60,442 bases of DNA, taken from contig QPGO01000125.1 of assembly GCA_008632985.1 (NCBI GenBank), positions 186,001 through 246,442 on the forward strand, written 5' to 3'. This DNA is from Psammoneis japonica. Its lineage: Eukaryota. Position 1 is the first letter of the stretch. Each line of letters starts with the position of its first letter. The notes below the pieces were generated by a model. It ran no database searches. It saw only the letters and a list, made by a program, of their open reading frames with translations, and had not been told where the DNA came from. Below are positions 281-52,199 of the stretch, piece after piece. The translations under genes were made by a program, and so were the position numbers.

Positions 281-1016
281 GTCATGGATCCTGTGGATTC
301 CCTGCCATCGCCTCGGCTGTCCGATCTTCGATGACATGGCAGAGTGACGCTTCTGCATCATGAATGCTTCGATACGTGTACTGTAAGAGCTGTAGCAGAA
401 ACAAAGGCGCCGATTGATGGCGGCCGTTGATGTTGATTGATGGGCCATTTTCGCTCGTTTCTGGGAACGAGTACGGGTCTGTAGGGCGTAGGGCAGGGAA
501 TACTGTCTGATGTCTAATTTTAAATAAATAATAATATTCAATCACGAATATAGTAATGCGGAATCCGTTTTGGATTGGAGGGAGAAGAAGCAATTGTACA
601 TGTTCTACGTACTTCTACGCAATTTTGAAAATTTGGTTTAGATGGATACACTGATCACTTTAGAGTACCGTAGAAACCCGCACAGGGATAGCATTGCTTT
701 TGTGGACATTTTCCATCATTGCGGCTGGAGAAGGCTTGGCGTGTTATTTATGGCGATGTCCGGAGACTGCCGGATGCATGCCAGTCGCTGATGCGTTGTT
801 GAGGTTCAAAAAATCGAAAAGATATCGTTGATGTCGTAGCCCTACATTTCTACGTAACACACAAGTAGGAACAAAACGAATCGAATTACGCCACGTCATG
901 CCTTTGAAGGGAAGAATTTCGACAAACCAGGCGCGCAAGCTATGGAAGCGCCGTTTTTGTCGCTCTCACAACATGTTGGATGTCACACACACACAATCCT
1001 ATAGCATCGCTAGTCT

Positions 1017-2450
1017 ATGTACCTTTCCCGCCTTAATCTTTTAGACTATCAACACTCTACTAGTAGAGGTACTGACACTCCAAGGCGCTCGACTTTTGGT
1101 ATGTTGTCTTCAACGGTACAATCTCTGGACCCGTCGCGAAAGGAAGCAGGGACAGAAGTCAAGAATGCGTCTCAGGATGGATTCTCAAGGGGCAAAGTTT
1201 TTCGCGCAAAGGAGATCACGAGTGACAATGAGGTTCATTCCCCTGGAACATGCATTGGATGTGGTGTCCGCACCCACAAGATTAAAAGGTTCAGCGCAAA
1301 CAAGCCAATCACCGGTGCCAATGTGTACAAAGGAATTTGCATCGCATGCAACCCGGAACTTGCCCCTCAGAAAGCTCTCGAAAGGGATGAATCTGTGGAT
1401 GAAACACCGGTCAGTGTCATAACGATTACTAATTCCTCTACTGACTCGCAAGCTTCCTTTGAAGACTCGGTCGCTACCTACGACGATGATGCTGGTCCTG
1501 TTGACGAGCCTACGAAGGGCCCGGGTCGTTCGACCTCCGAACGCATTGTCCAATACGTCTCCTCGGATATCGTTGAGGAAAAAGTCGCGTTCAACGACAT
1601 CTCCGCGCTCAACGCCGCCAGCCAAGCGATGACTGAAGCGCTGTCGACTATGGATGCCCTCTCGATCCATGATGCAGTCGGGTTGCTTACAAAAACAGCA
1701 GAGACTGCGACGTTTGTAAAGAAGTTTTTTCCTGGGGCCATTGGAAGTTCTCAAGTCCTGAAACAAGTTGCACCGGTTATCGAACGCAAGGGGTTTACAC
1801 CAGAAAACACGCTTTTCGCTCAAAGCATCTGCCCCGACGAGATCAATCACGAGCCCGAGGACTTGCCGAATCTATTTGCCGAATATCTCGGTGAGGTGTT
1901 TCATTTGGGTGGGTTGGCTGGAGTCCCCTTTACTGGAAAGACGGGTTTCGGTGCCTTCAGTCATCACGTTCCAGAGTCGGGGCATTTGTTTATTCTCATG
2001 GCACCGCACATTGGTGTGTCGGATGACTTGAAACTCGGTCAGTACAGTCGTCTTGGACAGACTCACAATGGAGCTGCTTGTGGAGCCGCGTGTGGAGCAT
2101 TGGCTCACTGCTGTGCCAACAAGCCTCTTCCGGACTTGGCTAGCGCCCATAACGACTATCAAATGTCGTACCTAATGCATCAGATCAACAAGCGAAAGGA
2201 TATCATTTTGTCCAATGAAGGAGAGAACGGGATTCAGGCTGCTCTCGCGTATGAGACATATGATATCGCCAAGGAGATGCTAGACGCGATTGTTTCTCTT
2301 GAGTTCGGGGACGAACACAGCTCCTTGGTTCTGCTCACTGGCATTCAAATCAACATGCCCGACCCGTTTGAGGACTACTTCCAGCCATTATCGTTTGAAA
2401 TGCTTACCAAGGACGGGCAAAAACATGATTTGTTCGACAAAGCCTTTTAA
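1017..2450 (+). CDS. LCIB/LCIC-family (theta-type) carbonic anhydrase with N-terminal CxxC..CxxC extension (start may be ATG 1101)
   Basis: LCIB motifs SICPDEIN, FHLGGLAGVPFTGKTGFGAFSHHVP, APHIG, AACGA (Cys-His-Cys Zn ligands). Confidence 0.92.
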   Translation: MYLSRLNLLDYQHSTSRGTDTPRRSTFGMLSSTVQSLDPSRKEAGTEVKNASQDGFSRGKVFRAKEITSDNEVHSPGTCIGCGVRTHKIKRFSANKPITGANVYKGICIACNPELAPQKALERDESVDETPVSVITITNSSTDSQASFEDSVATYDDDAGPVDEPTKGPGRSTSERIVQYVSSDIVEEKVAFNDISALNAASQAMTEALSTMDALSIHDAVGLLTKTAETATFVKKFFPGAIGSSQVLKQVAPVIERKGFTPENTLFAQSICPDEINHEPEDLPNLFAEYLGEVFHLGGLAGVPFTGKTGFGAFSHHVPESGHLFILMAPHIGVSDDLKLGQYSRLGQTHNGAACGAACGALAHCCANKPLPDLASAHNDYQMSYLMHQINKRKDIILSNEGENGIQAALAYETYDIAKEMLDAIVSLEFGDEHSSLVLLTGIQINMPDPFEDYFQPLSFEMLTKDGQKHDLFDKAF

Positions 2451-3175: not shown

Positions 3176-5122
3176 TTAAAAGTGCGAGATACTTGCTTTC
3201 CTCCTTACAGCTGAAACACCTAGATATTTGAGTCGACTGATGGAGCTGAGATCCGATGCAATGTAAATATCCCAAATTGATCGCCAAAGCCACTCGTCAA
3301 TGCGCTTGTGGTGATTTGATTTGCGACTTCGTCCGCCACCTTTGATCTTCCATCTTTCCAAGCAAAATGCGGCGTCAGATAGTAGTTGAAGTGTAGCGTA
3401 AGCTACAAGTAGTTTCCGCACAGCATGTGAGTCTTCTTTCAAGAAAAACTCGTCCACAAGCCGACGCACAGTGACATTAAAAGCCGAATAGACCTGAGGA
3501 AGGAGTTTCTTGGTCTTCTTGGTAATCTTAATCCTATCTCTCTGTCCATCCTCTTCAACAAGTTCAAATCGGTTCTCCCATCCACGTCTCTTCTCCCAGT
3601 CATCAACCATGCCCAGGGTATGAAAGAATGAAAATAGGAATTTGGTCAGGAATGCAGGAAGCGGCATGAGCTTGGGCTCTCCCATGTCAAAAAGATAAAG
3701 CAGCTTGTCCGTGTCGAGGAAGAGATTGTGGAGCCCCCCGTCTGCTAGGCCGCCATTCCAGAGTCGCTCTTTCGCGGCAGGACTTTTCAGACTCGTGGCC
3801 TCCTCCAGCAGCGTTCGCCATGAGTCACACGTGTATCCATGAGCCTCCATCGCAGCAGGAGTCTTTCGCTCACCTACAAACACTTGATTCATGAGCGTTC
3901 CTTCTTTGAGCAAAAGTCCCAGCATCGTCGCGGGAACAATCTCATCAGATGTCAAATGCAAGTCCCCACTACGAAATGCCTTGCCCATCCGTCGCAAGAG
4001 AAAGAAGCGACCCTTCTCGGGATGCCAGTTCTTCTTGAAAGAGAAGCCCACAAAGGCGTCGGTCTCTGTCGACACCTCACAAGGCAGCATGCATCGATCC
4101 TTTTGGGCCTTCCTGCACTCGTTACGTACAGTTTCAACTGCGTCTTTTTCACAGGGTTTGGCGAGACTCTGCAAGTTGCAAATGACAACAATGCACTCCT
4201 CTGTGAGTCTCTCTAAGAGCTTCCCTTCCAAATTGCCGTTCGCGAGATGAAACGCCGCAGTTTTCGGGCAAGGCCCACCTGTTGCCTTTTGAGCGAGAGC
4301 AAACTTCCATCGTCGTTTCCTCTGCAATGTCGCCAGCTCATCCACAAATGATTTCAAACAGACATGTCCTTCAGAAGGGGCACCATGGTGCAGAGCGCAC
4401 TTGCTCGTGTCGACATTCGTTTCGGATCCAAGGAGGATGTTCACGGAACTTGACTGGCGATTTGTGCACACTCGACTGCCCTTGACTGTCTTGCAAAGCC
4501 GAACAACGGAGCTTTGTGTAGATGACTTGTCGCTGATGTGGCTTGAACATGAGCGGAAGCTCCTTTCACTGCGGTCATCATTCGAGGCCGGTGGCATGGA
4601 CATGAGACTTCGAGTGGAACAGTCAAGCTCCCTCGTCAAAACTGACTGGTTTTCGAATCGCGTTGAGAAGCTGGCCCAACAGTCTTTTGGTTTCGCCTCT
4701 AAATGATGTGGTGCAATGTGCATCATTCTGAAATCTGGAGTGCGTCGTAGCATGTCTTGTGCTGCAGCTTTCGAAGACTCGTTCATAGCCTGACGTTCTT
4801 CCAGTTCTCTTGAAATGGTCGCCAACGCAAAAAGTTCTTTTGTGTCTCTCTCGGATCCATGCTTCATGACAAGGCTTCCCAGTGTAGGATCCTCTCCACC
4901 AAAGACGCGAACTCCACTGCCTCCACCGCTCAACGTCTTGAAATTTTGCATCGCTGCCGGTCCATGACCATGCGGATGAATTTCAGGCAGGTGCTGGTCA
5001 GGAACAAATTCCATGCGCGCACCCTGGTCATCCAGCGTCACCAGCAATCCGTGATCTTTGGGGACGTCATCCAAGAGGCGCTGATCCTTGGAGCTCTTTC
5101 TTGCGGAAAGCAACCGCAACAT
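3176..5122 (-). CDS. Hypothetical 648-aa protein with weak kinase-like motifs; 5' two-thirds hypermutated
   Basis: Long open ORF with GGGSG..V, vMKHG and DGGLHN..LFDMGEP; no Tyr in the first 429 aa versus 6 in the last 219. Confidence 0.7.
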   Translation of the reverse strand: MLRLLSARKSSKDQRLLDDVPKDHGLLVTLDDQGARMEFVPDQHLPEIHPHGHGPAAMQNFKTLSGGGSGVRVFGGEDPTLGSLVMKHGSERDTKELFALATISRELEERQAMNESSKAAAQDMLRRTPDFRMMHIAPHHLEAKPKDCWASFSTRFENQSVLTRELDCSTRSLMSMPPASNDDRSERSFRSCSSHISDKSSTQSSVVRLCKTVKGSRVCTNRQSSSVNILLGSETNVDTSKCALHHGAPSEGHVCLKSFVDELATLQRKRRWKFALAQKATGGPCPKTAAFHLANGNLEGKLLERLTEECIVVICNLQSLAKPCEKDAVETVRNECRKAQKDRCMLPCEVSTETDAFVGFSFKKNWHPEKGRFFLLRRMGKAFRSGDLHLTSDEIVPATMLGLLLKEGTLMNQVFVGERKTPAAMEAHGYTCDSWRTLLEEATSLKSPAAKERLWNGGLADGGLHNLFLDTDKLLYLFDMGEPKLMPLPAFLTKFLFSFFHTLGMVDDWEKRRGWENRFELVEEDGQRDRIKITKKTKKLLPQVYSAFNVTVRRLVDEFFLKEDSHAVRKLLVAYATLQLLSDAAFCLERWKIKGGGRSRKSNHHKRIDEWLWRSIWDIYIASDLSSISRLKYLGVSAVRRKASISHF

Positions 5123-5599
5123 GGCCCTGGTGCTGACACAGCGTCTCCAACGTTTGCTTTGTCATGGCGTCAAAGAGTCGGACCCACAGCAAATGGAACT
5201 TTCACTGATCCTTTTCTTGTCCCTTTTCATTCCTGCGATGTGTCCTTTTCTCAACTCACTGGGACACCATTTGCAACAAGTTTTTCAACAACAGCAGTGC
5301 AAAAGGCCTTTTGGTTTGTTTCTCTTTTTGTTGCATTGCATCCCCTTCTTCTTCGTCATCATCGAAGATGCATCAACTTCTTGTGAGTGAGATCCTTCTC
5401 ATTTGCGTGCAGGCGCCCCGGAGTTGTGTTGAATGAGCAATGCCATCAGCCATTAAAAAAAATCCTAGAAGCAACACACAAACAATCCATGCGACAACTA
5501 AGAAAATTCACCAGGAGGGAAAACGCGATCAACATCGCTCCCACGATCGAGGCTCGCATCGTCCACCTTCTGTGCTCTGTGTCCAGTGTTGTCACAACT

Positions 5600-6400
5600 C
5601 ACAACCCCTGGGCAATGCTGCGCCAGCATGTGCGGGCAAGATCTCGCTTGGACGATGCATTGAGAATGGTGAGCAGAGTGAAGAAACCAAGAAGTGAATG
5701 GAAAGAAGAAAAGTTCTTTCAAGTGGGTGTTGCGGCGTGTGCTCTTGTCGCTCCACTCATGAAGAAGCACAAAGCTCACAGGTGGGTGCTGGCACCAACT
5801 GTGTTCAACAGTGGATCAGTGGTGTGTGACCACTGCAAGTCCACTGTGTGGACACTTGCAATTCATTGACATCCACTTGGCACCCTCCCACAATGTGCTC
5901 CAAACATGGCCGTTTCCAATGTGACGTCTCATGGGATCAGAGAGCAGTGCTGGGCAATCGCATGCCAGACCAGGTGCCTTGTCAGGAGTGAACCAAAATG
6001 CAGTGGTTGCAATGCAGAATTGATCCAACAATTTCATGGTCACAATTTCCTCAATCCATTGTGGAAACAATGACTGCTGTGACATGTCACTGGCTGGCAA
6101 CGTTGGTTGATTTGGTGACAACATCAACATGTCAGAAGTGTTGTTGTTGTGCAGACATTCACACTGTTTGGCAGTGGGACTCAGTTCAACCAAGACTTGC
6201 AAAATGCAGTGTGATTTGCCAACTGCATTGCTGCAGTCCTTGTCACAGTGTGCTGAGTTGGCTTGTTCCTCGATGGCGCGCGCACAATGTGTCTGGCCAC
6301 ACAAGGGGGTGCCGAGTCAAGCAAAGGAACACACCCAAACCAAGCCCCTTGCAAAGGCATGACAAAGCATGGTGAGGCAATTTTGCACTGCCCTCCTCAA
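5600..6400 (-). pseudogene. Decayed partial duplicate of the COG0523 locus
   Basis: 5600-5790 aligns with 9165-9355 and 5850-6400 with 11080-11610; translation IEEQANSAHCDKDCSNAVGKSHCI versus parent IEDESNSAPYDENYSNAIGQSLYV. Confidence 0.9.
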
Positions 6401-6893
6401 AGCATTCCATGGTGACCAGCAATGGAATGTGCCGCAGGAGTGACAATTGTTCGTTTGGCCAATGGCAGAAGAACGGCAGAGGGAACTTTGTGATTCACCA
6501 GATGTGCTCTCACCTGCACAATTGCGGAACTTCAGAATGAGGGAACCAAGATGGTGGCACACAATGGGACGAGTGGTTTGTCGACCCACGCAAATGGCGA
6601 ACCGAAGCAGCGGCTCAATTTTGCACGGTGTGAGTGGAACGACTTGTTAAAAAATTGTCTGTTCACCTTGCTCAGCCCACCTTTCTAGCATCGTCTTCAC
6701 TTTGTGAATGTCAGCATGCAAGTCAGTGTCACTTGCATGGTGCCTGGGACCTCCATGAAACACCACAGCCGCCAAAAATGCTGCGGACTCCAACAGAACG
6801 GATCTGTGATGTGTTGTGTGTTTGCCAGCGCTTTCAGTGTGCTCCACACGAATCCAGCCAGCAAAGTAGAGTGTCGTTGGTTGGCAAGCTGCT

Positions 6894-8000
6894 TTAGCAG
6901 CCACCGCCGAAATTGCAGAAGACAGGGAAATGTCGAAATTTTGAATGCCAGCTCGTGTTGCCGGGTGCAATGATTCCAGGCTTAAGAGCTGCAATGGGGC
7001 ACTGGTTGTTTCTGATGGATCCGCTCACCCTTGGGATGTCAATGGCATCGGAATCGAGTTCAATGCATCCATTCTCAATCTTGTTGTTCTTGATGAACCA
7101 GTCTTCTTCGACTGCCTTGTTGTTTGGAACGTTTGTGAAGTGACTGACACCTCGAGCCTTGCACCTGGAGTTCATCCCAGAAATTTTCATGCAGTTGTCC
7201 TTGATCACCACGTTCTTCAAGTGCCATGGAAATGTGTTCTCGCAGACGTGCATGAGGGTGCTGGAATCACGGAAATCATTGTCGACAACCTGGATTTCTT
7301 CACCGTTTCTCAATTTCAAGGACCCTCCATCACCAGCGGGCGTCCAACCAGACACGCAGTTGTTTTGGATCACAAGCTTTGTGAAGCCAATTGCGCAAAT
7401 GCCGTGGCCCATTTCCTTTCCACCTGTTCGAATGACTTGATTGTTCTGAATGATGGTGTCATGCGTTCTCTTGTCTAGAATGTTGCCATCGGACGCCTTG
7501 TCAAGCCCACCGTTGATGTTGATGCCTGCATCCAAGAAGCCCTTGATGGTGTTTCCATCGATGCACAATCCAACACTGTGCCACGACCAAAGAATTCACA
7601 TTTGGTGCGCTCAAAAGTGGAGTCAACTACGCTGCCATTCTTGCAACACTTGAACATGACAAACTTGTCCTTTTTGGGGTTCTTGAAAGTGCAGTCAACC
7701 ACTTGTCAGTTTCGGCCCTTCGCATGATCTTGATTGCCTTCAAACAGAATGCTGATGCCAACAAAGTCAATCTTTTTAAAGATCACGTTGCTCAAGTTTG
7801 CAAGAGCAAACTGGACGTCGTTTCCAGAACTGCGGGCAGAGAGCTTGGCAGCGCCACTGCCCCGGAATGTGATTCCGCTCTTGAGTGCAATTGGTTTGGT
7901 GATGGTGTGGGAACCATCCACAGATGGATTGCATCTCCCTCACCAGCTTCATCAATTGCACAATTGCTTTCTGTGTCTTTCCTTGCAACGCGCCCTTTTC
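6894..8000 (-). pseudogene. Right-handed beta-helix (pectin-lyase-like) protein remnant
   Basis: Consecutive ORF fragments 7706-7921, 7475-7702 and 6894-7568 with beta-helix periodicity (IALKSGITFRG, IDGNTI, IIQNNQV, VIKDN, IKNNKI); stop and frameshift; no Tyr in the 224-aa fragment. Confidence 0.7.
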
Positions 8001-8261
8001 AATGCAGTGGTCTTGGCCGCCACACTTGGTGTTCCACAGTGGACGAGAAGGCATGCAAACAGGGAGCTTTGTGCTTGTTTCATCTTCGCAGATCTCGAGC
8101 AGAAAGCTTGCAGACTGTCCGCAGTTGAGAGGAGAAGCAGAAAGCTCAAAACTGGGCAAAAGTGAATGACTGGGGTGTGTCTGGACAGCAGCTGTCCGGA
8201 GAATGGGGATCATGCATGCAGCATGCCAAGCGTTTTCGTTTCATTGTCAAGCTCTCTGCTG

Positions 8262-8933
8262 ACCCCACTCGGGCAAAAAATCGAACCACTCAGTGGTTCG
8301 CAACTTGCACAGCGTGAAACTCGCCACTGACCAGACAAAGCAGCACCTCCCAGCAAATGACTTGTCAATGGAGGCAAAAAGCCATCGTTTTTAATTCAGC
8401 ATGTTGTCAGCTGCCACTCGTGTATGGAGCACGGTCGCCGTCAAATTACCGTCATGGTCACACTCGGTGATTTTCTCACCCCGCAGAAACAACCGCAGCG
8501 AGCAGCGCAAAAAAAAACATCGAACCATTGGATGGTTCGCTGCGTAGATAAGTGCCAGGAGCCCCGTAGAATTGGTGAACCATGAGGTGGTTCGGGAGGA
8601 CGAGCGTAGAAATATACGTGCATTTTGCACCAGAGGGTCGAATGAAAAATCGAACCAGAAAAATGACGCTCACGATGAACAAGACGGTGGCAGTGCGGAG
8701 ACTTTTAAGAACGCAGTAAACCACAAATAAAGCACAGATGTTGTCAAACAGACTTTGCTGCATTGACTGATGCAAAGTTATTACAAATATCTCATTATCT
8801 TTTACGCTTTTACCCATCATCTATCGGTTCGTTTTTGGCTTGCCGCGAACCACTTGATGGTTCGGGGCAGGAATCGCGCGCATTCGTGATTTCGCGCGGC
8901 GAACCACTGCATGGTTCGCGCTGGGAGTGGGGC
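8262..8933. mobile_element. Putative non-autonomous DNA transposon (MITE) with five CGAACCA-N5-TGGTTCG palindromes
   Basis: Short TIR CCCCACTC (8263-8270) / GAGTGGGG (8925-8932); palindromes at 8282, 8521, 8576, 8846, 8900. Confidence 0.6.
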
Positions 8934-9322: not shown

Positions 9323-12189
9323 TCACGAAGAAGCACAAAGCTCGGGTGGATGCTGGCTTTGATGGCCATGACTGTGATCGTGGTGTTCGTGTGAATGCTG
9401 CTGCTCCTGATTTAACTTTATTTCCAAAGCCGCATTCCATAGGTCAAACAACGCGTCGCCCTCGCAACTTCCCGTCCCAGGATTCCAGTGGAGCCTCGAC
9501 TTCTTCATTGGTACACAAGCAGGCGTCAAGCACCATTGTCACACGCTTCTGATCCAACGACTGTCCAATAATCACCAGCTCTTGTTGCCGATCGCCGTAT
9601 GGTTCGTGCCACAGCGGGAAAATGGCCTCGGCTAGACCTACGGGCCAGTCACATTTGTCAATCTCAGCCCACCACGGATTTCCGGGAAGAATCGAGTAAT
9701 GCTTGCCCGCAAACGAGAATTCCCCTTGCAGCTGGGGGCAGTTGACCAGCCACAAAAAGCCCTTGGCACGCAAGACGCCACCAAAGGGAGTTTTTTGAGC
9801 CTGCAAATCATCGAGTACTCGGCCAAGGCGTTTAGGATGAAATGGTTTGAGAGCGCGGTACGTAAAGGATGAAATGCCATACTCTTCGGTTTCGGGTGTG
9901 TGCTCTCCGATACGAGCCTCTTGCAACCATCCTTCATGACGTTCCGCTTCCGACATGGAAAAGAGACGAGTTCCCAAGACAGCTTCCAACGGCACGTTGC
10001 TAAAAGTGGATTCCACCAGCCGGGCTGTCGGATTCATTTGAGCCACCAACCGTCGTACCTCGCCCAATTCATGCGGTTGAATCAAGTCACACTTGTTCAA
10101 TACAATAACATTCGCAAATTCAATTTGATCGCACAGCAAGTGCGAAATGGTACGTTCGTCCTCGGGGTCGGACTGCCAGCCTCGTGCCCGCAACGACTCC
10201 AAGGCGTTTAATTCAGCCAAGAATTGTGAGCCATCCACGACCGTGACCATGGTATCAATCAAGGCAATGTCGCTCAGAGTCAATCCAGTCTCGTCATTGG
10301 CAAAGGTAAAGGTCTCGGCCACAGGCATGGGTTCCGATATCCCACTACTTTCAATCAACAAGTAATCAAAGGTACCCTGGTTTGCAATCTTGGTTACTTC
10401 AATCAGCAGGTCTTCTCGCAAAGTACAGCATATGCATCCGTTGGACAACTCCACGAGATGCTCTTGGCGTTGATGAATCGTCACTGCCTTTTGCTGAACC
10501 AGAGCGGCATCAATGTTGATCTCACCCATGTCATTGACCAGTATGGCTACACGGAGCCCCTGATAATTGGCTAGTATGTGGGAGAGCAAGGTGGTCTTGC
10601 CCGATCCCAAAAAACCGGAAAGGACCGTGACGGGGAGTTTTGTGAATGAGTCTTGGTCCATACTCGTGGGTTTGGTAGCGAGGGGAGGTTGTTGTTGTAG
10701 GAGGTCCTTTGGTTCTTCGTCTTCTTTCTGGTTCGCAATAACATGCTGTGATTGTGTTCCCAATGTTGACCCATAATTATCATTAGCCATCATAATTTCC
10801 TGACCAAATATACCTCCCCATTTCTGCGGCACCAACCCTACAGTGGCTGCTTGATGCAGTCCCAGAGACAGAGTGCGTAAAGCAGCCACGGATGCTGCAT
10901 CCAAGCGTCGGCACATATTGGGATAGGTATACCAATCATAGGGAGACTCGTCATCTTCCATGTCGGCATCTTCCAGAGGACCTTCGGGTGGTGGGTCCAT
11001 GGCATACAAGGGCCAGAGCGTCACCAAGACGGGCCGTCCATTGGGCGCATACACGTGGACGGGCGGGACATGAGGCATGGCTTGCACTTGGTCGGCGTCC
11101 ACTTGACAGCATTCCACAATGCTCCGAATGGCCGTTTCCAAAGACGTCTCATTGGACCGGGGAGCCACGCTGGGCAATCTCATGCCAGACCAGGCGCCTT
11201 GCAAGGAGCGGACCAACACGCAGCGGTTGCCGCGGAGAACCAATCCACCAATTTCGCGATCACAATTTTCCCAATCCATTGTGGAAATATCAATATGCGT
11301 TAAAGTATCATTGGCAATGTTTGTTGACTTGGTGACAATGGCAATTTCGGAAGTGATATCCTCACAAAGGCGTTCGCACTGTTTGGTAATGCGACTCATT
11401 TCAACCGAAACTTGCGAAACGTAGAGTGACTGACCAATCGCGTTGCTGTAGTTCTCGTCGTAGGGTGCTGAATTGGACTCGTCCTCGATGGGTTCTTGCC
11501 CAAACATTGTGTTTGGCCACAAGAGGGTACCGAGACGAGCAAAGCAAGACACCCGCGCCGATCCCTGTGGAAAGGCATGACGAAGCATGGCGAGGCGCTT
11601 TTGCATGGCCGATTCGTCTGTAAAGACCACGTGCAAGGGCAAGTTACATACTGTGACGGCAGGACCCACAAGGGACCACATTTTGAAATTTGGGTTGCCT
11701 CTGCATGTGAAGTACCAATTTGAGCAAGAGCGGAGCAAGGTCATCCGAGGCCACAAGGCTCGCGTGACGCAGAACGAGGCGTTCCAACAAACGTAAAATA
11801 GACTTGGCCAACCCCTTGTCGAGTTCGGGCTTTTGAAGTTCTTTTTGCAAGGCATCTGTTTGTTCTTCTTCGGAATGGAACATGGGCGAAAGATCCAGGA
11901 CAAACAGCGTCTTGAAAGAATGATCGGTACCGATTTCGTGACGCCGCATCAAGTCTTGCGCTTGCGCTGCAAATTCATACATGACATGACGCCGCTCTTC
12001 ATCGTCTCCATCATACTGACTCTTCCAGCTCCGGCTCTCTTTCCCACGGCTGCAGTGGAGCACGACACTGGCATTCTGGATTGCTCCATCGCCTTGACGA
12101 GGCACCTTGTACGGTCCATAGCCTCCATGGAACGCAAACACGGACGCTGTCTTCCATTCCGTTTTGTCAGCTCGTGCTTTGCGTGACAT
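9323..12189 (-). CDS. COG0523/CobW-family G3E metallochaperone GTPase fused to an N-terminal unknown domain and a NUDIX-like domain, with His-rich tail
   Basis: GFLGSGKTT, LVNDMGEINID, LSNGCICC, IESSG, NKCD, CobW_C (LRAKGFLW, YGDRQQELVIIG). ORFs 11644-12189, 9444-11903 and 9323-9529 join if one extra base is removed at 11672-74 and at 9471-73, giving tail HSHEHHDHSHGH. Confidence 0.9.
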
Positions 12190-13181: not shown

Positions 13182-13215
13182 AATTCAGCGTATGTAGTAT
13201 TCTCTCCAAAGTCAT

Positions 13216-30185: not shown

Positions 30186-30469
30186 GGTGCGTCTTTTTTC
30201 CTCACAGAACGTGCGGATGTGCAGGTCTTAGAGGGAATTCGTGGGGTTGGTATGTTTGTACCGGTACGCACATGCACGTAGACGAATGAGAGACGAACCA
30301 CTCACCGTAGGAACCCGTAGGATATGTACCGGCAGTTACAAGTAAGCGGTAGCACAGTAAGAGATGTGCTGAGACGGACAGACGAGGGCGATGCGGAGCC
30401 CCGCCCGCCCGCCGCCCGCGCCTCGCCCATGGCTGGCTGGTGGCTCGGCTACGGCTGGGCGCCCATCCA

Positions 30470-33260
30470 CACCCAGCCCGCCCAGCCAGCCATGCCAAGG
30501 TTGTCCATGTCATCCAGAACCCAATCATCATTCTGAAGACACCATCAGCTTCAGCTTCTGCACAAAAGTTGCAGCAGCACCCAGCCAGAGCACAATCATG
30601 TTTGCCAGCAGTGTGGCGGAAGGGAGGAGGGGGCGGGGGCAACTTCTCTTTTTTTTTTCTTGACGTTCGCACAAAACACTCTGCTGAGCTCTGTGCTGTG
30701 CTTTCTCTTTTGCACACGCTCTCATCTTCCATCCTCTTGTTTTTCTCCATGCTCTGTCACTTTTTTGCTGTGCTGCAGTGCAAACATTCTCTGGCACACC
30801 CCCCACAGGCTCTTTGGCTTGTTGCAAAACACAGCGCCAGTGCAAGCTTCTTTGGATGACAGCCGCCACTTGAGAAAATCTTTGGAGACCAGTGCCAGAG
30901 AAAGCAAAAGCCAGATTGGCTTGCTTTCTGAGTGAGCAGCAAACCTGCACCACATGTGCACTTTCAACTGGGTTTCTTTCAGAGAGTGCACAGGTGGAAA
31001 AACAGGCTCGTCTCTCATCATTGGCAGAGAGTGATCATGGTGGGAGGTCACTTTGGCTCCTTGTGTGTTGGGAAGGCAGAGTTGAGCAGTCAACACAGCA
31101 GTGCAGCAGAGATCATCACACAACAACCTGCAGCTCTGCCACAGATTGTTGTCAAAATTGTCAAAAGGCTTTTTGACATTTTCTTGAGACCTTGTTCTGT
31201 CAAAAAAGTTTGACTTCTTTGGCAAAGCTCCTGCAGCAAAAATTTTTATGGCATTTTGTTGCACGCAAAGCTGTCAGCAGGTGACACAGCCAAGTGGCTG
31301 AAATGCCAAGCAACAATGTGCAGAAACTCATCACATGCTGAAATCAAGACAAAATTGCCACTTGCTTGTTTTTCTGAGAAAGTCATCTCTGCTGGTGTGA
31401 GCCCTTTTGCAAGAACTTTGTGCGAGGTCATGAAACCAGCACTTGGCCAACACAAAGTGTGCCCTTGATGTGCAATGCATCCCAACACACCAGCTCTCTG
31501 TCTGTCAGAGGGAAGTGATCTTGCCATCTCAACTGCTGAGCACAGCACTCCACCATCACCTCTGAGCAACTCAACACCTGATGGACCCATGTTTGGCATT
31601 CTCAAAAGGCAGGCTGCCCCTCATGCAAGCCAATGAAGAAGACATGACTCCCCAAGAATCATCAGGTGAGAGAGCTCAGCTTTCAGCACAAAACCCATGG
31701 AAAAGAGCGCACTGCACTTTCTTTCTAAGTTTTGGCAAAGTCTCTTCTCTCAAGATCTTCAGCAGCCACACCTGTGCCAATTTTTCCATTCTTGGCTGCC
31801 AACAAGAATTTTTAGAGAGCCAAAGATGATGAATGGCAATTCGTGGCGATTCCCCGGGAGTTCACCCTTCCCGTGGAAAAACATGGCAGAAGGTGGCAAT
31901 CCCAGGGAATTTTGAGAAAATGCACGGTGGGGCCAAACTGAGGCACACAGAAGGGCACAGCCAAGTTGTTGATGACTTCTGTTCAGCAACACACTGCTGC
32001 TGACAAAGCTGTCATCTTTGGGTGGATCTGCAACAGAACACGGGCTCTGCTGAGAAAAAACTTGGAGAGCTCTTGCTTGTTTTTTCTGTGGCTGTGGAGG
32101 CAGAAGGTCAGAACTTGAGATGGCAGTGCGTGCAAGTCATCACAAAGTCAATGGTCAGGCAGAGGTGCTGCTGCAGCAGAGAGGCAGTCTTGGAGCATGG
32201 ACACACTGACAGCATCAGCAAAACTGAAGGCAGCTGTGCTTGTGCTGCATCATGCACCCCCATGTGCGAGCATCGGGCAGAGACTGGACTTTCAGTTGGG
32301 CGGGTGCAATGCTGCCAGCTCTCAAGCTCTCACAGTTGAGCACCACTGTGGTCCCAGCTGGCTCTCTCCAGCCTGACAAGATTTGCCAGCAGGCAAAGCA
32401 GCAAAAAGAGACAATGAGCGGGCAAACACCAAACCACTGTTTGGTCAAGAGCACTTTGCCTGGCTGTGCCAACTGGAGCCACGTGCTGCTCCAAGGAAAA
32501 TCTGGCTCTAAATGTTTCCCCCAGCAACAACAGGATTTCCTGACAGCTGGCAGAGGGGAGCTCTGCCTCCATGAATTTGGAGTGGATTGCGTGCTCTTGT
32601 CCTTCCTCATCGGGTGGGAAGAAGGTGTGTGAGTTCAAAGAGGTTGTTGAGCTGGCAAGCGTGCATGGAAATGACTGGGTGCCATTGCTGCACACTTTCT
32701 TGAGGGGCTGTGCAACCAATCCTTGGAATTTTCTGCAACTTTGCAGGCCATCTTGGTCATGAAAAACTTTTTGAGTGCTGCATCAAAAGTGCCCTCTTTG
32801 CCACAGAGCAGCGCTTGCGTCATGCTGGCTCACAGCGCATCACTCCAGCCCCTCTTCAGCACGCGCCAAACAGAAGGCATGGTGACAAGGCATGGTGACA
32901 AGACAGAGACAGGGAAGACATTTGTGACATCCAGAGGAGCAGCAACACTCTTTTGTTGAACTGCCACCTTGGAAGAAAGCAATGTCGTTTTCTGTGTCAT
33001 CTTCAGAGCCCAGCTTCAGAATCAATTTTTTCTGGAGTCTGTCAGGGTTGCCAGTGTTTCAGTCAATGTGAGACAGAAAGCAGCCACTCAACATTTGGCA
33101 AAAGCTTGTGTTGATTTTCTGCTGCTTTCCTCTCGCACAATGTGCCAAGCACGCATGCCATCTTGTTTTGTTGTGCTGCACACACGAACGGACGAGTGAT
33201 CAAAAGTGCAAGCCAGCCAGCGAGCTGCCACAGCACCTCACTTCCCGTCGTCTGACTGGC
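30470..33260. other. TpA- and CpG-depleted hypermutated block 2 (unclassified repeat-derived DNA)
   Basis: About 4 TA in 2.8 kb by eye (31247, 31726, 31813, 32509); no recognisable protein. Confidence 0.85.
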
Positions 33261-34016
33261 GTTCTATGGTGTCGCACTAGCTCTGAAGAGTCGTCATTGT
33301 CATCCTTTCCGTCGGTTCCTTCCCGCCCACTCCCAGCTTGCTTGGTCGGTTCCATGACCTCCTGCCTTCCACCGCTGTAGGTCTAAGTGATGAATTCTGT
33401 ATCGACATTTGAAAAGAAGAGTTGTTAAATAGGCTGACAGGACAATGTCGTGCATCTGTAAACCAGGGCAGTTGGTCATCAGAATTCCACGTAATGATGT
33501 TTTCGTTTATGAACATTTTTATACGCTGGCTGAAGGGTAAAGGTGGTGGTAGCAGTCTACAGCACCGTATGGATGGTGTCCGGGTACTGTACACTGTAAC
33601 TTGTATGCCCGCATCATTCTTCAATTGTGTCTTTTTTCCGGTAGAGTAATTCCTTGCATTTGTTCGCTGCTAAAGTCATCAGTGCGTGCCGTCATTCTTT
33701 CGTTTTTTGTTCTTGGTACAAGAAGTATTCCCCACCTGCCGCACCAGCAGTTCCAACAGCAGGGGTCAGCGGGTACGACAAAAGTTAGAGAAGACTCGAG
33801 GACGATATCGATAGGCGAGCGCTTCAAAACTGCAAGTTAGCAGTAGACGAGCGTTTGCGTTGTTCCACCCATCTACTTGTGGGTGCACAGAATCAGTGTG
33901 GTAGGTGGTAGCACAAATAGATCGAGCGCATTCCTCCGGTTGTGCAGTTGTGTGCTGTCCTCATATACTATACTAGAGCAGATCGCGCCCCACGCACCCA
34001 TATAGCATACCATATA

Positions 34017-44902: not shown

Positions 44903-47900
44903 ATATAATGGTAGTAAAGAAGTAGTAGGTGAGGCACTTATGAATACATTCCGGGTTTCGTCTGTTGCTAGCACTTTGGCGTTGTCTGGAAATGTCTGCC
45001 AAACCAAATCGAAAGATTGAGCGATGCTGATGCAGGGGAGGGGCATCAAGTGGGGATGCCGACTTCTTGACAAAAATCGCCCCGCGATGTCCGAATTCCA
45101 GTCCGTGTGTGTCTACTAAGCTAGTCTGCAGGCAAATTGTCGATTCTGGATTCGCAATTCAAAAAACTCGTGACTCACGCATCACGCAAGTCATCATCAA
45201 CACGGCCCCAGACCAGGCAAAAACAAAAAGCTTGTTCCAAAAGCTTGTTCCAGCTCTGTTCCTTTGCATTGTGGGTCTTGTGCTGCCATCACTTGAGCTG
45301 GAACACATGCAGTCAAACTTTGACAGCAGCTTGATTGGGGTCAGGCCGGCAAATGTGGCACGCAACAACAAAAAGCTGCTGGGTGCACTCTTTCTTTCAT
45401 TGGAGCTTCTGGCCCACTTCTGTCCATTGTTGTGTGTTGCACACTTTCTTTCCTGCCAACACAGTGGAATTTTTTAGAGGACAAGCATTGCCAACAGCCA
45501 ACTTTTTTGGTGCTGTGTCAATGCCCCGCCCAGCACTGCGGCCATCAGCTTCTTGTGCTGCTCCTCAGCCCTTTGTGCAGTTGAAGCATCACGGAAGAGG
45601 AAGCAAAACAACTGATGGTGCAAGCCATTGAGACATTTGTGCTGTCTTTCACAGGGGAGGTTTCTTGTGGATGTTTGTCAACACATGACAATGCACAGCC
45701 TGCTGCATCCACGGCATTTGGCCACCCCCTGTTGCCATTGGCTTCTTGAACCGCCACCCCCCGCATGTGCTGCCCATTGGTCTGACTGCCACATTACATT
45801 GTGCATTGTTGGGGCTGGCTGCATCCTCCACAACAAGCTGCAAAGTTGCCGACAGAAAATGCTGCAAGAACATCAGTTGCTGTGCCAACTGGCAGCAAGG
45901 CAAACAATGATGAAAAGCAGAAGATGCAGAGAGGGTTGGCACAGGCCCGTCATTCCCAAAAAAGAAGAGTGTGCTTGAAAGCTGTCAAACAGTGCCAGGG
46001 GGCAGTGGACTCTCCCCATGCTGTGGCAAAAATTTGCATTGCAAGGAAGGCGCACCCTTTTCTTTGAAGACATTGATGGCTGCACGCTGTTGTGGATTTC
46101 TTTTGTTGCTGCTGATGCTGCTGTTGCTCAAAGGGGAGAAGAGAAGAGGCAGACTCAAGTCTGTTTGCTCCATGGGACCTGAGATTGTGAAAGTTCAGCT
46201 GAGGACTGCTCCAGGAAAAGCCCCCAATTGGAAAGACTGGTGGGCCAAGCAAGTTGTTTGAGCAGTTGAGTGGAGTCAAAAACTCTGTCAGCTTTAAGGT
46301 CAATCAGGATGAGCTGACTGCAGCTGCATTTGAAAAGTGCCAAAAAAGTGCAGTTCAGGCTGGGCAGATGAAGCTCAAGGGAAATTTCTTGAAGCCAGGT
46401 GATGCGCGCAACAGCGCAGTTGCAAAGGACTGTGCGCAGTGCCTCAGGGACAAAAAAGAAGAAGAGGAGGAGGACATAAAAGAAGTCAGTTTGGCTGGGG
46501 CCAATGAAATTGAATGCCATGATTTGCAGCTCAGGATTCTGTCTGAGGAATTTGCAAAATGCATCAAACTGCTTGAGCAGCTTCTCATGCATGAAAAACT
46601 TGCTGCCAAATCTGAAATGCTGCACACTTGTGGTGTGAGACACCAATGCTTTCTTGCACTGCTGCAGCCACTGGTCTGTCAAGCATGACAGCAGCCACTG
46701 TTTCAAGTTGTTTTAGAGGCATTGCCGTGTTCTCCACTCAAACCTTGAATGCAGGAGACCATTTTCTCTAATGTGTCAATGCCAGATCCCCTTGGCCTCT
46801 CTGCAAGCTCAATGATGCAAAAGCCAAGTCATCAAATGACCTTCAGAATCTCAGCAGGCCTGTTCCAGCCCCAGGTGATGAGCAATCCATCATGTGAGAG
46901 GCTGATTTTCTGTGCAGTTTGGCACATTGAACTCCTTCAAATTTGATCATTTTGAAAATCAAAAGGTGAGTGCACACAAAAAACATGAGTTTGTTTGTGC
47001 ACTCACCCTTTGATTTGGGAAAAACTGATTTTGAAGGAGTTCATTGCGCCAAATGCAAAAATGAGCCAGTGATGGGAATCGAGCCTGTGCACGTCACCTG
47101 GAGCTGGAGCAGGCCAATGGCAAGCAACATCAGGCTTTGTTGTCTGCATCACATGCACTGTTCCATTGCCTTCTTGGCATTCTTGGAATCAGCCCAGCAA
47201 TCAGCTGCCTTGTGGCTGACTTTGCCACGCATGCTGCACCTTTTCAAACAAGCTTTCAACTGCTCTCTTCACTGCAGTCACATTGTCCAGGTTTGATGTG
47301 GTGGCTGGCGCATGATTTAATCAAATTTCTCACATTCCTGAGTTGCAGGGTCTTTTGCTGGCAAAACCTTGGCAGGAGCAGACTTGGCTGCATCAGAGTC
47401 TCTTGGCTTGGTTTGCAGATGACAGCTGAGTGGATCAACAGATTTGACAAAATCATTGTCCATCACACCACAAGGCGTGCCACACATCTCTGAAGGTGTT
47501 CTTTTTGTTTGGTTTTGTTGGCTCACACTTGATCCTCATTGACAGGCTTGGGGCAAACTGCCAAAGAATGAGATGAGTGCCACAGCAGCCAGAGCATGAA
47601 ACCACACATTTTGGTGGTCATGGTGAGCCATTTTCACTCAATGGGAGTGACAAATGCTGAGTCTTGGCTGAAGCACAGAGCAAAGAGATGGCGACACCAG
47701 AGGCGGAGCTGCCAGAGGTGGTGGTCATGCCACCAAACTTTTTGAGCTTGGAAGAAGTCTTGATGAGATGATCCAAAAGACAGCCAAGCTCTGGCCCACA
47801 AGAAGCCAGTGGGAATTGCAGACTGACCTTTCCAGTCTTGAAGATTTTCAAGTCTTGAATGGCCACCAGCACAGATGAAAGAGACAACTTTGCTGATGCC

Positions 47901-50900: not shown

Positions 50901-51772
50901 TGCATGAAAATGATTGCAAAAGGAAAGGAGCCACCTGCAGTGCAAGAGACAAGCAGCCAAGTTTCCTGTGGCAGGCCACTTCTTGAAGAAGAAGCGCTGC
51001 AGGCAGCAGCTGCACTCTAGACTGGCCAGCCACAAAAGATGAAAGGACCATGATGTTGCCTGCAAGACAAAAGGACCACATTGACTGCAACTGGCACCAA
51101 ACAACTGCAGGAAATTTTCTTTTCTTCTGAGGGAAAATCCAGGGGAGCAAGAGCAGCTCAGCATGACCCAAAACCCAGCTCTTGTGCTCACACATGATGT
51201 GCACATTGATTTCCCCCTCATTGGCTTGTTGAACAAAGGAAACAAAGTGGGTTTCCTTTTTTGTTTTGTTGCACAATGTGAGCCAGATTTGTCACACCAA
51301 CTTGAGCTTTTGTGGGCTTGCTTGGAAAAGAGAGCACACTTGAAGAAACCACAGAAGCACATCTTTTTGCCCTTGAGAAAGTTCCCCCCCCCCCCCCCCC
51401 CATGGCATCTGCCTCACTCATTGTTGAGCGCAGTGCACAAAGAATCAGCGTGTCTTGGCAGCCACAGGCTCTGGACAAATCAACAGCCAGATGAAAGGAT
51501 CATGATGGTTGCAACTGCGCACTGAATTGCCAATGAATTTTTCCTTGCCTTTCCTTGTCCAAGGAAGTTTGGGGCCAAACAAGCAATTCCCCATGATCAA
51601 AAACCCCAAATGATGCAGCGGCTGGCATGTTCACAGATGATTCCATCTGCGGCATTGCCATCAAATTTGCACGCTGGAAAAATGTGCAGATTTCTGCTTG
51701 TTGTCATCAAAATGGAGTTTGCATCATTGTCAAATTCTGCACAAACCCTGGTGCATTTCCTGTGCAGTTCAT

Positions 51773-51928
51773 GAAGAGCCACCTGTGCAGCTGGACCATT
51801 GCCCACTTCACGGTCGCCACACAAAATGCAAAAAACTGTTGCCAATGATGGAAGAGCCACCTGTGCAGCTGGGCCATTGCCCACTTCACAGCCGCCACAC
51901 AAAATGCAAAAAACTGTTGCCAATGATG
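51773..51928. repeat. 78-bp tandem repeat, 2 copies
   Basis: GAAGAGCCACCTGTGCAGCTG...GCCAATGATG at 51773 and 51851. Confidence 0.95.
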
Positions 51929-52199
51929 CCTGCATTGCCAAGGTCTGAGCTCCAGATTAGAAGCACCACAGCAGCTGACAAAGACTCTGCTGCCATCTGC
52001 CATGCTGTCCAGTTTGTGGCATGATGACAATCACAGGAGTCAACAGGTTGCATTGATGCATTGGCTGTGTCACTTGTTGATTGACCCCCCTGATGAAAAA
52101 TTGCAAAAGGAACTTTTTCCATGGTGTGCTGAGTGTTGTTGAGCATGCTTTCCAGAAAAATCATTTGATTGCAGCGAAGCATTCCATGCTCTGATGCAC

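Follow-up and report, generated by a model that had tools for sequence, protein, structure and literature searches.

TA-free domains in a diatom contig point to a regionally targeted A:T to G:C hypermutation that resembles TpA hypermutation in Bigelowiella and reaches host genes

The first account of targeted A:T to G:C hypermutation of DNA, from 2026, concerned viral inserts in a single rhizarian alga. In mutation-accumulation lines of the chlorarachniophyte Bigelowiella natans, TpA is converted to TpG or CpA within restricted regions of the genome (Mettrop et al., bioRxiv 10.64898/2026.01.13.699255); integrated viral regions are targeted and the process is not active everywhere or always. 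The main text of the preprint contains none of the terms ‘trinucleotide’, ‘downstream’, ‘CpG’ or ‘diatom’. Our literature search on TpA hypermutation returned this preprint alone and nothing from diatoms, and the available part of a diatom mutation-accumulation paper reports a GC to AT bias with no occurrence of ‘TpA’ (PMC6604790). Another described hypermutation, the repeat-induced point mutation (RIP) of fungi, converts C:G to T:A, mostly at CpA, creating TpA; it needs duplication and hits both copies (PMC2621366).

The window analysed here is a stretch of 60,442 nucleotides from Psammoneis japonica (contig QPGO01000125.1, positions 186,001 to 246,442). It is nuclear DNA of a diatom, a stramenopile, whereas Bigelowiella is a rhizarian. 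A first-pass annotation, made from the letters of the sequence, had noticed the loss of TA in one decayed gene duplicate; the effect is much larger than that copy and extends over three domains. Domain A (4215..8392, 4.2 kb) has a TA O/E of 0.06, with CG at 0.63, TG at 1.60 and CA at 1.62, and is CpG-poor in part. Domain B (30451..33265) holds four TA (O/E 0.02; CG 0.25, CA 1.79, TG 1.63) and domain C (45123..55380, 10.3 kb) holds 15 (O/E 0.02; CG 0.17, CA 1.76, TG 1.86). Outside the domains the TA O/E is 0.60, and TG and CA lie at 1.17-1.19, compared with 1.6-1.86 inside. TA-free intervals of more than 200 bases number 23 in the window, and 22 of them belong to the three domains (counting 30450-31247, which starts at the last TA preceding domain B), while the single one outside spans 238 bases. 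This signature resembles that of Bigelowiella, now in a diatom and reaching host genes. Both cases consist of nearly only A>G or T>C changes on TpA in restricted regions, with TpA depletion and CpA/TpG gain in clustered windows. The depletion is near-complete here (TA O/E 0.02), against 0.45 for the Bigelowiella giant-virus region, and our domains also show a 3' pyrimidine preference and co-occurring CpG decay. The rate in Bigelowiella was measured in mutation-accumulation lines, whereas the process described here is known from its sequence signature.

Domain A includes a decayed partial duplicate of the neighbouring NUDIX-CobW gene (5599-6387), which makes up 0.73 kb of the domain. The parent gene (9444..12189, minus strand) encodes a NUDIX-like N-terminal part, a CobW/G3E GTPase and CobW_C (Pfam cobW 1.3e-52, CobW_C 4.5e-21), has diatom homologues with 48-53% identity, and is not hypermutated. 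Its base 11672 is missing in the contigs of two runs, X1 (a public DNA run that probably derives from the sample of the assembly) and X2, and its two ORFs then join into one. The first piece of the copy (5599..5793, minus strand) matches the parental 3' untranslated region at 9166-9357 (blastn 84.7%, E 5e-54; 93.2% identity in purine/pyrimidine space) and the second (5855..6387, minus strand) matches parent codons 85-258 at 11081-11605 (blastn 73.4%, E 6e-85; 88.7%). The parental middle, 9358-11080, is absent, and the second piece is a pseudogene with four in-frame TGA codons and indels. A self-comparison in purine/pyrimidine space revealed no further parent in the window and placed the ends of the duplicate at 5599 and 6388.

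The copy has no TA at all, and the parent, which the first-pass annotation had described as keeping its TA at a distance of 3-5 kb, retains 72 (O/E 0.45; CG 0.92). The alignment confirms the individual changes that the annotation had read: TA became CA from 11387 to 6172, 11422 to 6207, 11449 to 6234 and 11461 to 6246, and TG from 11528 to 6310, 9222 to 5656 and 9297 to 5731. Altogether, of the 14 TA that the aligned segments of the parent contain, seven became TG, four CA and one GA, the other two fell in indels and none was kept; 11 of the 12 aligned TA are thus TG or CA. Bases in TA changed at 13 of 26 positions, compared with 53 of 320 other A/T (Fisher p 2e-4), and bases in CG at 41 of 92, compared with 38 of 270 other G/C (p 8e-9), in a copy that also has indels and 15% other substitutions. 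Three tyrosines (Y132, Y136 and Y145) became cysteine by TAC to TGT or TGC, again as had been noticed. The parent represents the ancestral state, as the annotation had presumed: at the 74 codons with a differing residue, 10 diatom orthologues favour the parent in 48 and the copy in 10, with 16 tied, and tyrosine is found at Y132 in 10/10 orthologues and at Y136 in 8/10. Since an X1 contig over 5501-6778 nearly matches the window (10 differences in 1279 bases), the TA-free copy also exists in read-derived contigs.

The changes follow a motif, TAY>TGY or, on the other strand, RTA>RCA, which is a strong preference and not a rule. TA is palindromic, so an A>G change in one strand looks the same as T>C in the other. 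Among 36 polarised events, the edited A is followed by a pyrimidine in 31 (C 18, T 13) and by a purine in five (A 3, G 2), and at 24 TA with TAY on one strand only it is the TAY strand that was edited in 21 (p 2.8e-4). The TA that survive inside the domains are YTAR in 26 of 35 cases, compared with 270 of 1812 outside (odds ratio 16.5, p 1.4e-14). In-domain abundance falls to 0.01-fold for ATA/TAT and GTA/TAC and to 0.10-0.11-fold for CTA/TAG and TAA/TTA, TAR being depleted 10-fold too. The proposal that TAY sites change above background is therefore borne out by the Fisher comparison of TA bases, by strand choice, by the surviving TA and by the trinucleotide counts. Strand-coordinated editing was considered for the copy, where the 11 TA fates form three runs (P 0.034), and was set aside, as the TAY context accounts for it; across entire domains, TG and CA occur in equal numbers and in random order (z 0.56, -0.72, 0.34).

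The targets in Bigelowiella are viral inserts, whereas domain A is made of host genes and a host-gene fragment, and Pfam detected no viral or transposon domain in it. Its left edge is graded, from about 3300 to 4214: between 3000 and 4200 the TA O/E declines through 0.77, 0.50, 0.36, 0.17 and 0.06, with CG steady at 0.72-0.97. An LCIB/C-type carbonic anhydrase gene (gene 1; 1014..2450, plus strand; Pfam LCIB_C_CA 3e-55) is normal in the window. Gene 2 (3176..5161, minus strand) encodes a conserved diatom protein of unknown function in an intact 661-aa frame (56% identity to P0234 over 95% of the query, E 4e-221), and its 5' 945 bases lie within domain A and are nearly TA-free (TA O/E 0.09 inside the domain vs 0.40 outside; CG 0.88 vs 0.81). 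At its tyrosine-majority columns, tyrosine is kept in 0/9 inside the domain and 4/5 outside (p 0.005), having been replaced by histidine six times and by cysteine once. Editing of TAY on the coding strand predicts cysteine, so the excess of histidine needs selection or editing of the opposite strand. Further inside, a TA-free remnant (gene 3; 6897..7595, minus strand) corresponds to the C-terminal part of a right-handed beta-helix protein (50% identity to P0258, E 2.8e-54; the family member P0260 matches Pfam Beta_helix), with its upstream part in another frame, to about 7900. Its four invariant tyrosine columns read C, H, C, H, tyrosine is absent from all 233 aa, and the area 6600-7650 has a period-3 signal in purine/pyrimidine space. 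In 14 metagenomic loci around gene-2 relatives (63 kb), TA O/E values are 0.44-0.81 and every TA-free stretch is 256 bases or shorter; they serve as a control for gene 2, but 63 kb is too small a sample to judge the spread of the process among diatoms.

For domains B and C, which have no recognisable ancestor, we infer mutation from composition. The 137 stop-to-stop ORFs of at least 70 aa in the domains gave no Pfam family above cut-off (one weak match, to CCER1, reached 17 bits with a cut-off of 27). The longest domain ORFs are not longer than those of order-2 Markov simulations (P 0.06, 0.78, 0.39), and ORF length is consequently no evidence of coding in the domains. A purine/pyrimidine period-3 signal is absent in B and C (maximum chi-square 9), by a weak test that 12% of background windows pass. 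No common motif, target-site duplication or poly(A) tail was seen at the domain borders. A purine/pyrimidine match between 6387-6485 and 45818-45916 was discarded, as the ungapped letters agree at 31/99 positions.

The first-pass annotation had also noted that CG changes to TG or CA accompany the loss of TA, and this holds for 33 of the 46 parental CG aligned with the copy (CA 17, TG 16), the others being kept (8) or otherwise changed (5). This CpG decay is a separate second process in the same domains, since it is slower and has no flanking motif: TA loss leads CG loss, with the 5' half of gene 2 at a TA O/E of 0.09 and still at 0.88 for CG, and among 24 informative sites the TCG strand was edited at 14 (p 0.54). 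Decay of CpG to TpG or CpA is the usual signature of cytosine methylation. The decay of methylated DNA is like the CG changes observed here (CG O/E 0.17-0.63 in the domains), but it accounts for the CG part only and not for the loss of TA.

In the X1 DNA contigs, the left flank exists in a second version covering genes 1 and 2, with 323 differences in all. Among the 40 listed differences, whose contexts are known, A>G/T>C changes fall on TA in 25 of 26 cases and C>T/G>A changes on CG in 7 of 8; in the X1 contig over 1118-1684, for which all nine differences are listed, 7/12 TA and 1/42 CG have changed. When the residue changes in gene 1 are compared with 12 orthologues, the conserved columns Y455, L459, G468 and I256 favour the window. 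The variant contigs have depths of 40-56, compared with 59, which would fit a second, unphased allele. Because the two versions of the locus differ by TA changes, the process looks recent or still running, and different between alleles or cell lineages.

We consider it likely that these observations reflect a place-targeted A:T to G:C hypermutation of DNA that changed TAY to TGY in three domains, to near saturation, and was not triggered by duplication. Such a process would convert 5'-TAY-3' to TGY on either strand until few sites were left within the domains. The CobW fragment would have been mutated owing to its position inside a domain and not to its status as a duplicate, with the parent lying outside and spared; the graded edge runs into ordinary host genes, and in the second version of the locus it lies about 2-3 kb further out. 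A repeat-induced defence like RIP, in which the copy is mutated for being a duplicate, agrees with the duplicate nature of the CobW fragment and with the co-occurring CpG transitions, and it resembles the present case in that selected regions irreversibly lose their coding capacity through transition hypermutation. However, the parent is untouched, domain A is 5.7 times as long as the duplicate, unique genes have lost TA, and X1 contig depth over most of the domain is roughly single-copy (56-66 vs 59 in the flanks). The direction is also opposite, as RIP makes TA from CA (PMC2621366) and here TA is destroyed, so that we regard a RIP-like origin as very improbable. The suggestion in the annotation that targeting depends on place, unlike RIP, agrees with these data. 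Its alternative, that selection shielded the parent, is disfavoured: the parent ORF retains 67 TA, 45 of them removable by synonymous transition, and the 3' untranslated piece at 9166-9357 still has four.

Miscalled modified bases, an error of long-read assembly, or selected avoidance of TA might also leave TA-free sequence in place of mutation. The window differs from both runs by at least one 1-base indel, at 11672, as would be typical of long-read assembly, yet the TA-free copy is reproduced by read-derived contigs, conserved tyrosine codons are altered in ways that change proteins, and the copy carries indels and other substitutions besides. Avoidance would have to explain a 98% loss of TA over 10 kb that has no coding signal, and we know of no selection that strips this much TA from non-coding-like DNA of such length; we judge artefact and avoidance together to be very unlikely. 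Hyperediting of double-stranded RNA by an ADAR-like enzyme, with the edited copy then reverse-transcribed and inserted, would suit a copy without the gene middle. ADARs are, to our knowledge, restricted to animals. The preference of ADAR for a 5' U, as given in two sources (PMC10661471; bioRxiv 10.64898/2026.01.13.699255), agrees with the TA context, but its motif in the table of the former is 5'UAG, and a 3' G is found in only 2/36 events here. Moreover, genes 2 and 3 carry their changes at their native loci, as does the second version of genes 1 and 2, which leaves this route hardly any probability.

If this regional hypermutation acts on adenine, its chemistry could be that of a TadA/ADAT2-like deaminase, which would convert adenine in DNA to hypoxanthine and might be recruited to silenced chromatin. 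Enzymes of this type are tRNA enzymes, or engineered tools, and we know of no natural chromatin-targeted DNA activity established for them. The same regional process could instead modify thymine, through an enzyme of the TET/JBP kind that would oxidise T in RTA to 5-hydroxymethyl- or 5-formyl-uracil, bases that mispair with G and would yield T>C. The two chemistries are inseparable by sequence, since TAY>TGY on one strand reads RTA>RCA on the other. Oxidation of thymine has no specific support, however, and in the only published account of such a pattern the process proposed is that adenine is deaminated (bioRxiv 10.64898/2026.01.13.699255). The table of a review lists 5'ACG for TadA/ADAT2, with the substrate entry ‘RNA, DNA?’ (PMC10661471), and another paper states that a TadA-derived DNA editor prefers YAC (PMC13109818). 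From these sources, TadA-type deaminases and the adenine base editors derived from them convert A to I (read as G) with C 3' of the edited A in the natural substrate, and in one engineered variant also with a 5' pyrimidine, which matches the TAC/TAT preference observed here. We give the thymine route a small but appreciable probability.

The reading based on adenine editing could be carried further, although here we would regard it as a possibility open to considerable doubt: diatoms may possess a natural chromatin-guided adenine DNA editor with the motif TAY, which would start from silenced domains, extend outward one allele at a time and erase TA for good, including in conserved host genes. 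If this is true, it would constitute a mutational ratchet that makes silencing permanent, and it could generate strongly diverged alleles and long sequence free of TAA and TAG, able to seed new reading frames. With Bigelowiella as the other case, TpA editing would be a principle of eukaryotic genome defence, either ancient or evolved more than once. What the diatom locus adds is a TAY motif that narrows the search for the enzyme, a process distinct from CpG decay and faster, a dependence on position and not on repetition, its extension into conserved host genes, and a locus whose two versions differ by it. Finding the enzyme would reveal a natural editor of adenine in chromosomal DNA, and for genome biology the process is a new way in which genes can die, diatom alleles diverge and stop-poor sequence arise. 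Since TA-free, TG/CA-rich blocks are easily recognised, they provide a simple composition test usable on any genome.

Two further observations concern the read-derived contigs. Those of X1 contain weak joints, from 4341 to 12644 and from 5825 to 8263 (21 letters on the shorter side). Those of X2, whose record reads ‘DNA?’, lie on the parent gene and not on 668-8671, where missing cover is no evidence of silence, and they skip GT..AG segments.

A 1-kb scan of the window shows three blocks where TA O/E, elsewhere about 0.6, is just 0.0-0.13; in these same blocks TG+CA climbs to 1.6-1.96 and G+C holds steady near 0.49. With limits set from the positions of the TA dinucleotides, the blocks are domain A at 4215-8392 (TA O/E 0.06, CG O/E 0.63), domain B at 30451-33265 (0.02 and 0.25) and domain C at 45123-55380 (0.02 and 0.17), which sum to 17.3 of the 60.4 kb; TA O/E outside them is 0.60 and CG O/E 0.98. 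TA-free intervals of more than 200 bases number 23, and 22 of these lie within the three domains (counting 30450-31247, which starts at the last TA before its domain), and the single one elsewhere measures 238 bases. From 3000 to 4200 TA O/E declines gradually, through 0.77, 0.50, 0.36 and 0.17 to 0.06. The window has a G+C content of about 48% and is densely packed with genes. A Pfam search of its 28 long ORFs found ordinary nuclear genes (ribosomal protein S5e/S7p, alanyl-tRNA synthetase, a protein kinase, an LCIB/C-type carbonic anhydrase, a CobW GTPase) and a transposon or viral domain in none of the 28. Because the top homologues of three window proteins are diatom proteins (48-62% identity), the window is, judging from its sequence, nuclear DNA of the diatom.

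Domain A contains a decayed duplicate that, according to the first-pass annotation, had exchanged TA for TG or CA while its parent stayed intact. A blastn search of 4000-8500 against the window found it in two pieces: 5599-5793 matches 9166-9357 (84.7% identity), corresponding to the 3' untranslated region of the parent, and 5855-6387 matches 11081-11605 (73.4%), corresponding to parent codons 85-258. The pieces are collinear with the parent, a single minus-strand gene running from 12189 to 9444 with CobW and CobW_C domains after a NUDIX-like N-terminal part, and the 1.7 kb separating them there is absent from the copy. Purine/pyrimidine recoding, which masks transitions, raises the identities to 93.2% and 88.7%, with no similarity past the piece ends. 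The alignment confirms all seven of the parent-to-copy examples first noticed, at the coordinates given for them, as well as the three replacements of Tyr by Cys (Tyr132 and Tyr136, TAC to TGT/TGC; Tyr145, TAC to TGC). None of the 14 parental TA is kept in the copy, where 7 are TG, 4 CA and 1 GA and 2 lie in indels. The reported accompanying CG changes are also there, 33 of 46 parental CG having become TG or CA, with 8 kept. Change affected 13 of 26 bases inside TA compared with 53 of 320 other A/T sites (p = 2e-4), and 41 of 92 bases inside CG compared with 38 of 270 other G/C sites (p = 8e-9). The copy is a pseudogene, as its indels and four in-frame TGA codons show. The direction of change, for which an alignment polarised by orthologues had been proposed as a check, was read by aligning 10 diatom orthologues to the parent and comparing each codon of the copy: where the encoded residue differs, at 74 codons, they favour the parent in 48, the copy in 10 and neither in 16, and Tyr is present in 10/10 of them at Tyr132 and 8/10 at Tyr136. 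The 10 codons favouring the copy show that the parent, too, has had time to change since the duplication.

The copy spans just 0.73 of domain A's 4.2 kb, and the genes around it have been changed in the same way. Gene 2 (3176-5161, minus strand) is a 661-aa open frame for a conserved diatom protein with no assigned function (best homologue 56% identical over 95% of its length, E = 4e-221), and its 5' 945 bases lie within the domain. Among columns with Tyr in half or more of 12 orthologues, gene 2 keeps Tyr in 0 of 9 inside the domain, where the residue is now His in six and Cys, Glu and Phe in one each, and in 4 of 5 in the 3' part outside it (Fisher p = 0.005); the 315 residues inside include no Tyr at all. 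Since the match to conserved columns is equal inside and outside (0.737 versus 0.741), the frame has stayed open and there is no CG depletion (CG O/E 0.88, TA O/E 0.09), this 5' part has lost its TA and little else. The TA-free half is not a family trait: relatives of gene 2 from metagenomes (14 loci, 63 kb) have TA O/E of 0.44-0.81 and no TA-free stretch longer than 256 bases. To the right of the copy, a period-3 signal in purine/pyrimidine space at 6600-7650 pointed to the frame 6897-7595 (minus strand), a gene remnant with 58 relatives (HMMER), one of which matches Pfam Beta_helix. Its best relative (50% identity, E = 2.8e-54) is a 375-aa protein of which it spans the C-terminal 206 residues. 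Four columns that are Tyr in 8/8 aligned relatives are now Cys, His, Cys and His (TGC, CAC, TGC, CAC), there is no Tyr in 233 residues, and the upstream part is in a different frame. Domain A is a piece of ordinary chromosome, without a recognisable transposon or virus, all contents of which have lost TA.

Two public sequencing runs from one study, X1 and X2, cover the stretch, and X1 contigs were compared with the window over 1-20000. X1 behaves as genomic DNA (one unspliced contig over 12017-20000, at depth 59) and X2 as RNA (segments of 81-149 bases bounded by GT..AG are skipped in its contigs, one of which spans the parent gene, 9559-12256). The assembly was probably made from the X1 sample, which hence gives no independent support. 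A seeming frame break in the parent near 11672 is due to one base absent from the contigs of both runs, probably either an assembly error of 1 base or an allele with a frameshift; its removal fuses ORFs 11644-12189 and 9444-11855 into one intronless NUDIX-CobW gene. The X1 contig over the copy (5501-6778) reproduces it with 10 differences in 1279 bases, and X1 and the window are nearly the same over 9559-11917 (5 differences) and 12017-20000 (2 in 8 kb). Left of the copy, differences are numerous. Sorted by kind, the places of difference in X1 comprise 97 A>G, 65 T>C, 55 C>T, 49 G>A and 54 transversions. Among the 40 of 323 X1 differences listed, 25 of 26 A>G/T>C changes affect a TA of the window (p = 2e-15, relative to the 15% of A in the X1 variant region that belong to TA) and 7 of 8 C>T/G>A changes a CG. 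The contig over 1118-1684, all 9 differences of which are listed, has changed 7 of 12 TA, including 0 of 2 YTAR sites, and 1 of 42 CG. There are 31 differences over 2419-2778, where the window has 26 TA and 13 CG, and 3 over 1-822, where it has 36 TA, which indicates that this second version also has a graded edge, 2-3 kb beyond the window's own gradient. In gene 1, the LCIB-type carbonic anhydrase, the second version carries Y105C, Y156C, Y181C, Y413C, Y455C, L459S and G468R. As 12 orthologues agree with the window at conserved columns (column 455 is Tyr in 7, Phe in 5 and Cys in 0; L459 is Leu in 10/12, G468 Gly in 9/12, and I256 Ile in 7 versus Val in 2), the window is the older state there; at E430D, a transversion, they agree with the second version. 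An extra copy elsewhere in the genome would be expected to raise depth above 59, but the variant contigs have 40-56, compared with 59 for the invariant part. Shared words together with half-depth words fit a second allele, as read from depth in unphased contigs. Two X1 joints, 4341>12644 and 5825>8263, would skip 8302 and 2437 bases, with 21 letters on the shorter side, and may be structural differences between the versions of the locus, or noise.

Being its own reverse complement, each TA offers one A per strand, and 11 parent-to-copy events pooled with 25 from X1 define the preferred context. The base 3' of the changed A is C in 18, T in 13, A in 3 and G in 2 of the 36, a pyrimidine in 31/36, and at 24 TA with TAY on one strand only, the TAY strand was edited in 21 (binomial p = 2.8e-4). 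The 35 TA surviving in the domains comprise 26 YTAR (TAY on neither strand), 9 with TAY on one strand and 0 RTAY, compared with 270 YTAR among 1812 TA outside (odds ratio 16.5, p = 1.4e-14). Inside the domains ATA/TAT and GTA/TAC are at 0.01-fold (3 and 6 left), CTA/TAG at 0.10-fold and TAA/TTA at 0.11-fold. Together, these results give the rule TAY>TGY, or RTA>RCA on the opposite strand, with TAR attacked more slowly. The order of fates in the copy is run-like (TG x6, CA x4, TG x1; P = 0.034) because of the TAY contexts; across whole domains TG and CA are equally many and randomly interleaved. In gene 2 replacement of Tyr by His is far commoner than by Cys, whereas editing of coding-strand TAY predicts Cys, as in the dead copy; one possible reason is selection for His over Cys in a gene still used.

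CpG decay is a second process, later than TA loss and without a flanking motif. We found no flanking preference of CG changes: of 24 informative sites, the strand reading TCG was the one edited at 14 (p = 0.54). In the 5' half of gene 2, CG loss trails TA loss, and in domains A, B and C in turn CG O/E is 0.63, 0.25 and 0.17 with TA already at 0.06, 0.02 and 0.02. At edges of domains B and C (30400-30700, 33100-33400, 55100-55400), zones of at most 300 bases have TA O/E of 0.06-0.26 and CG O/E of 0.56-0.85; ORFs 55329-56174 (+) and 30205-30756 (-) cross the borders of domains C and B.

Mutation triggered by duplication, as in the repeat-induced point mutation (RIP) of fungi, would be suggested by the presence of a duplicate, but RIP creates TA and mutates both copies (PMC2621366), and here TA is destroyed, unique genes are changed and the parent is spared. 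The first-pass annotation had set the case apart from RIP, and its proposal that targeting depends on place gains support from the same observations. Its other suggestion, that selection protected the parent, is disfavoured: the parent ORF keeps 67 TA, 45 of which, on inspection of synonymous sites, could be removed by a synonymous transition and are all retained, and the untranslated piece retains 4 more, so that selection on the protein cannot account for its sparing. RNA editing of the ADAR type would also turn A into G, but the ADAR motif is UAG (PMC10661471), the edited A has a 3' G in just 2 of 36 events, and the genes were changed in place, at their own loci. A base-calling artefact is contradicted by the read-derived contigs that reproduce the TA-free copy, and by the 15% of other substitutions and the indels that accompany the changes. 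Oxidation of thymine at RTA would be expected to produce the same sequence pattern as attack on adenine at TAY.

The only relevant paper that full-text searches for TpA hypermutation turned up was a Bigelowiella natans preprint from 2026 (bioRxiv 10.64898/2026.01.13.699255). As its main text describes, 231 of 302 nuclear mutations in mutation-accumulation lines lay in an integrated giant-virus region and a virophage region, where the rate was about 1000-fold that of the genome; almost all of them were A>G/T>C, and every one of these was on TpA; the genome has 124 clusters of TpA-poor, CpA+TpG-rich windows; and its authors' proposal is that an ADAT2-like deaminase acts on DNA. The TpA signature and the restriction to regions are common to both cases, but the lineage differs, the targets here are host genes and a host-gene fragment, and depletion goes further (TA O/E 0.02 versus 0.45 there). 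The 3' pyrimidine preference, the concurrent CpG decay and the two differing versions of one locus go beyond that description; 'trinucleotide', 'downstream', 'CpG' and 'diatom' have 0 occurrences in the preprint's main text, although its supplements may hold a neighbour analysis. The accessible text of a diatom mutation-accumulation study reports a GC>AT bias with no mention of TpA (PMC6604790). The case is a variant of a very recently described kind of system, the Bigelowiella type.

What the observations establish is the direction and motif of the change, its confinement to regions whose edges are graded, its independence from duplication, the precedence of TA loss over CpG loss and the existence of two versions of the locus; the underlying chemistry is probably adenine deamination in DNA. 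In tRNA, the edited A34 comes after the invariant U33, which makes TAC the natural context of the TadA/ADAT2 enzyme family. A review table gives TadA/ADAT2 the motif 5'ACG and the substrate 'RNA, DNA?' (PMC10661471), and a TadA-derived DNA editor favours YAC (PMC13109818). The targeting signal might be silenced, cytosine-methylated chromatin that spreads, a proposal prompted by the CpG decay in the same places and by edges that are graded and can move.

Lacking TA, the three domains have neither TAA nor TAG, TGA being the sole possible stop, and chance open frames of 180-315 codons are present in all six frames. Gene finders would probably make false gene calls there, and new reading frames might in principle arise from such DNA. 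The right border of domain A, at 8283-8917, has five clustered copies, on one strand, of a 17-base hairpin motif, GAACCA-N5-TGGTTC (none expected by chance; 0 of 100 shuffles reach five); X1 depth there of 347-421, compared with about 59 elsewhere, and several loose ends show that this region is repeated in the genome, and past 8392 it has no TA depletion. At 51773-51928 in domain C there is a 78-base tandem duplication (2 copies, 96% match), all 3 differences being transitions. Two more internal similarity pairs in purine/pyrimidine space, at 28760-29418 (87% over 291 bases) and 17231-17410 / 19889-20068 (84% over 180 bases), lie outside the TA-free domains. Tandem or dispersed repeats at 37962-38528 (37962-38203 resembling 38281-38528, plus an 86-base unit) lie in the window's only kilobase with a TA O/E near 1 (0.99), where CG O/E is 1.55 and G+C 0.41.
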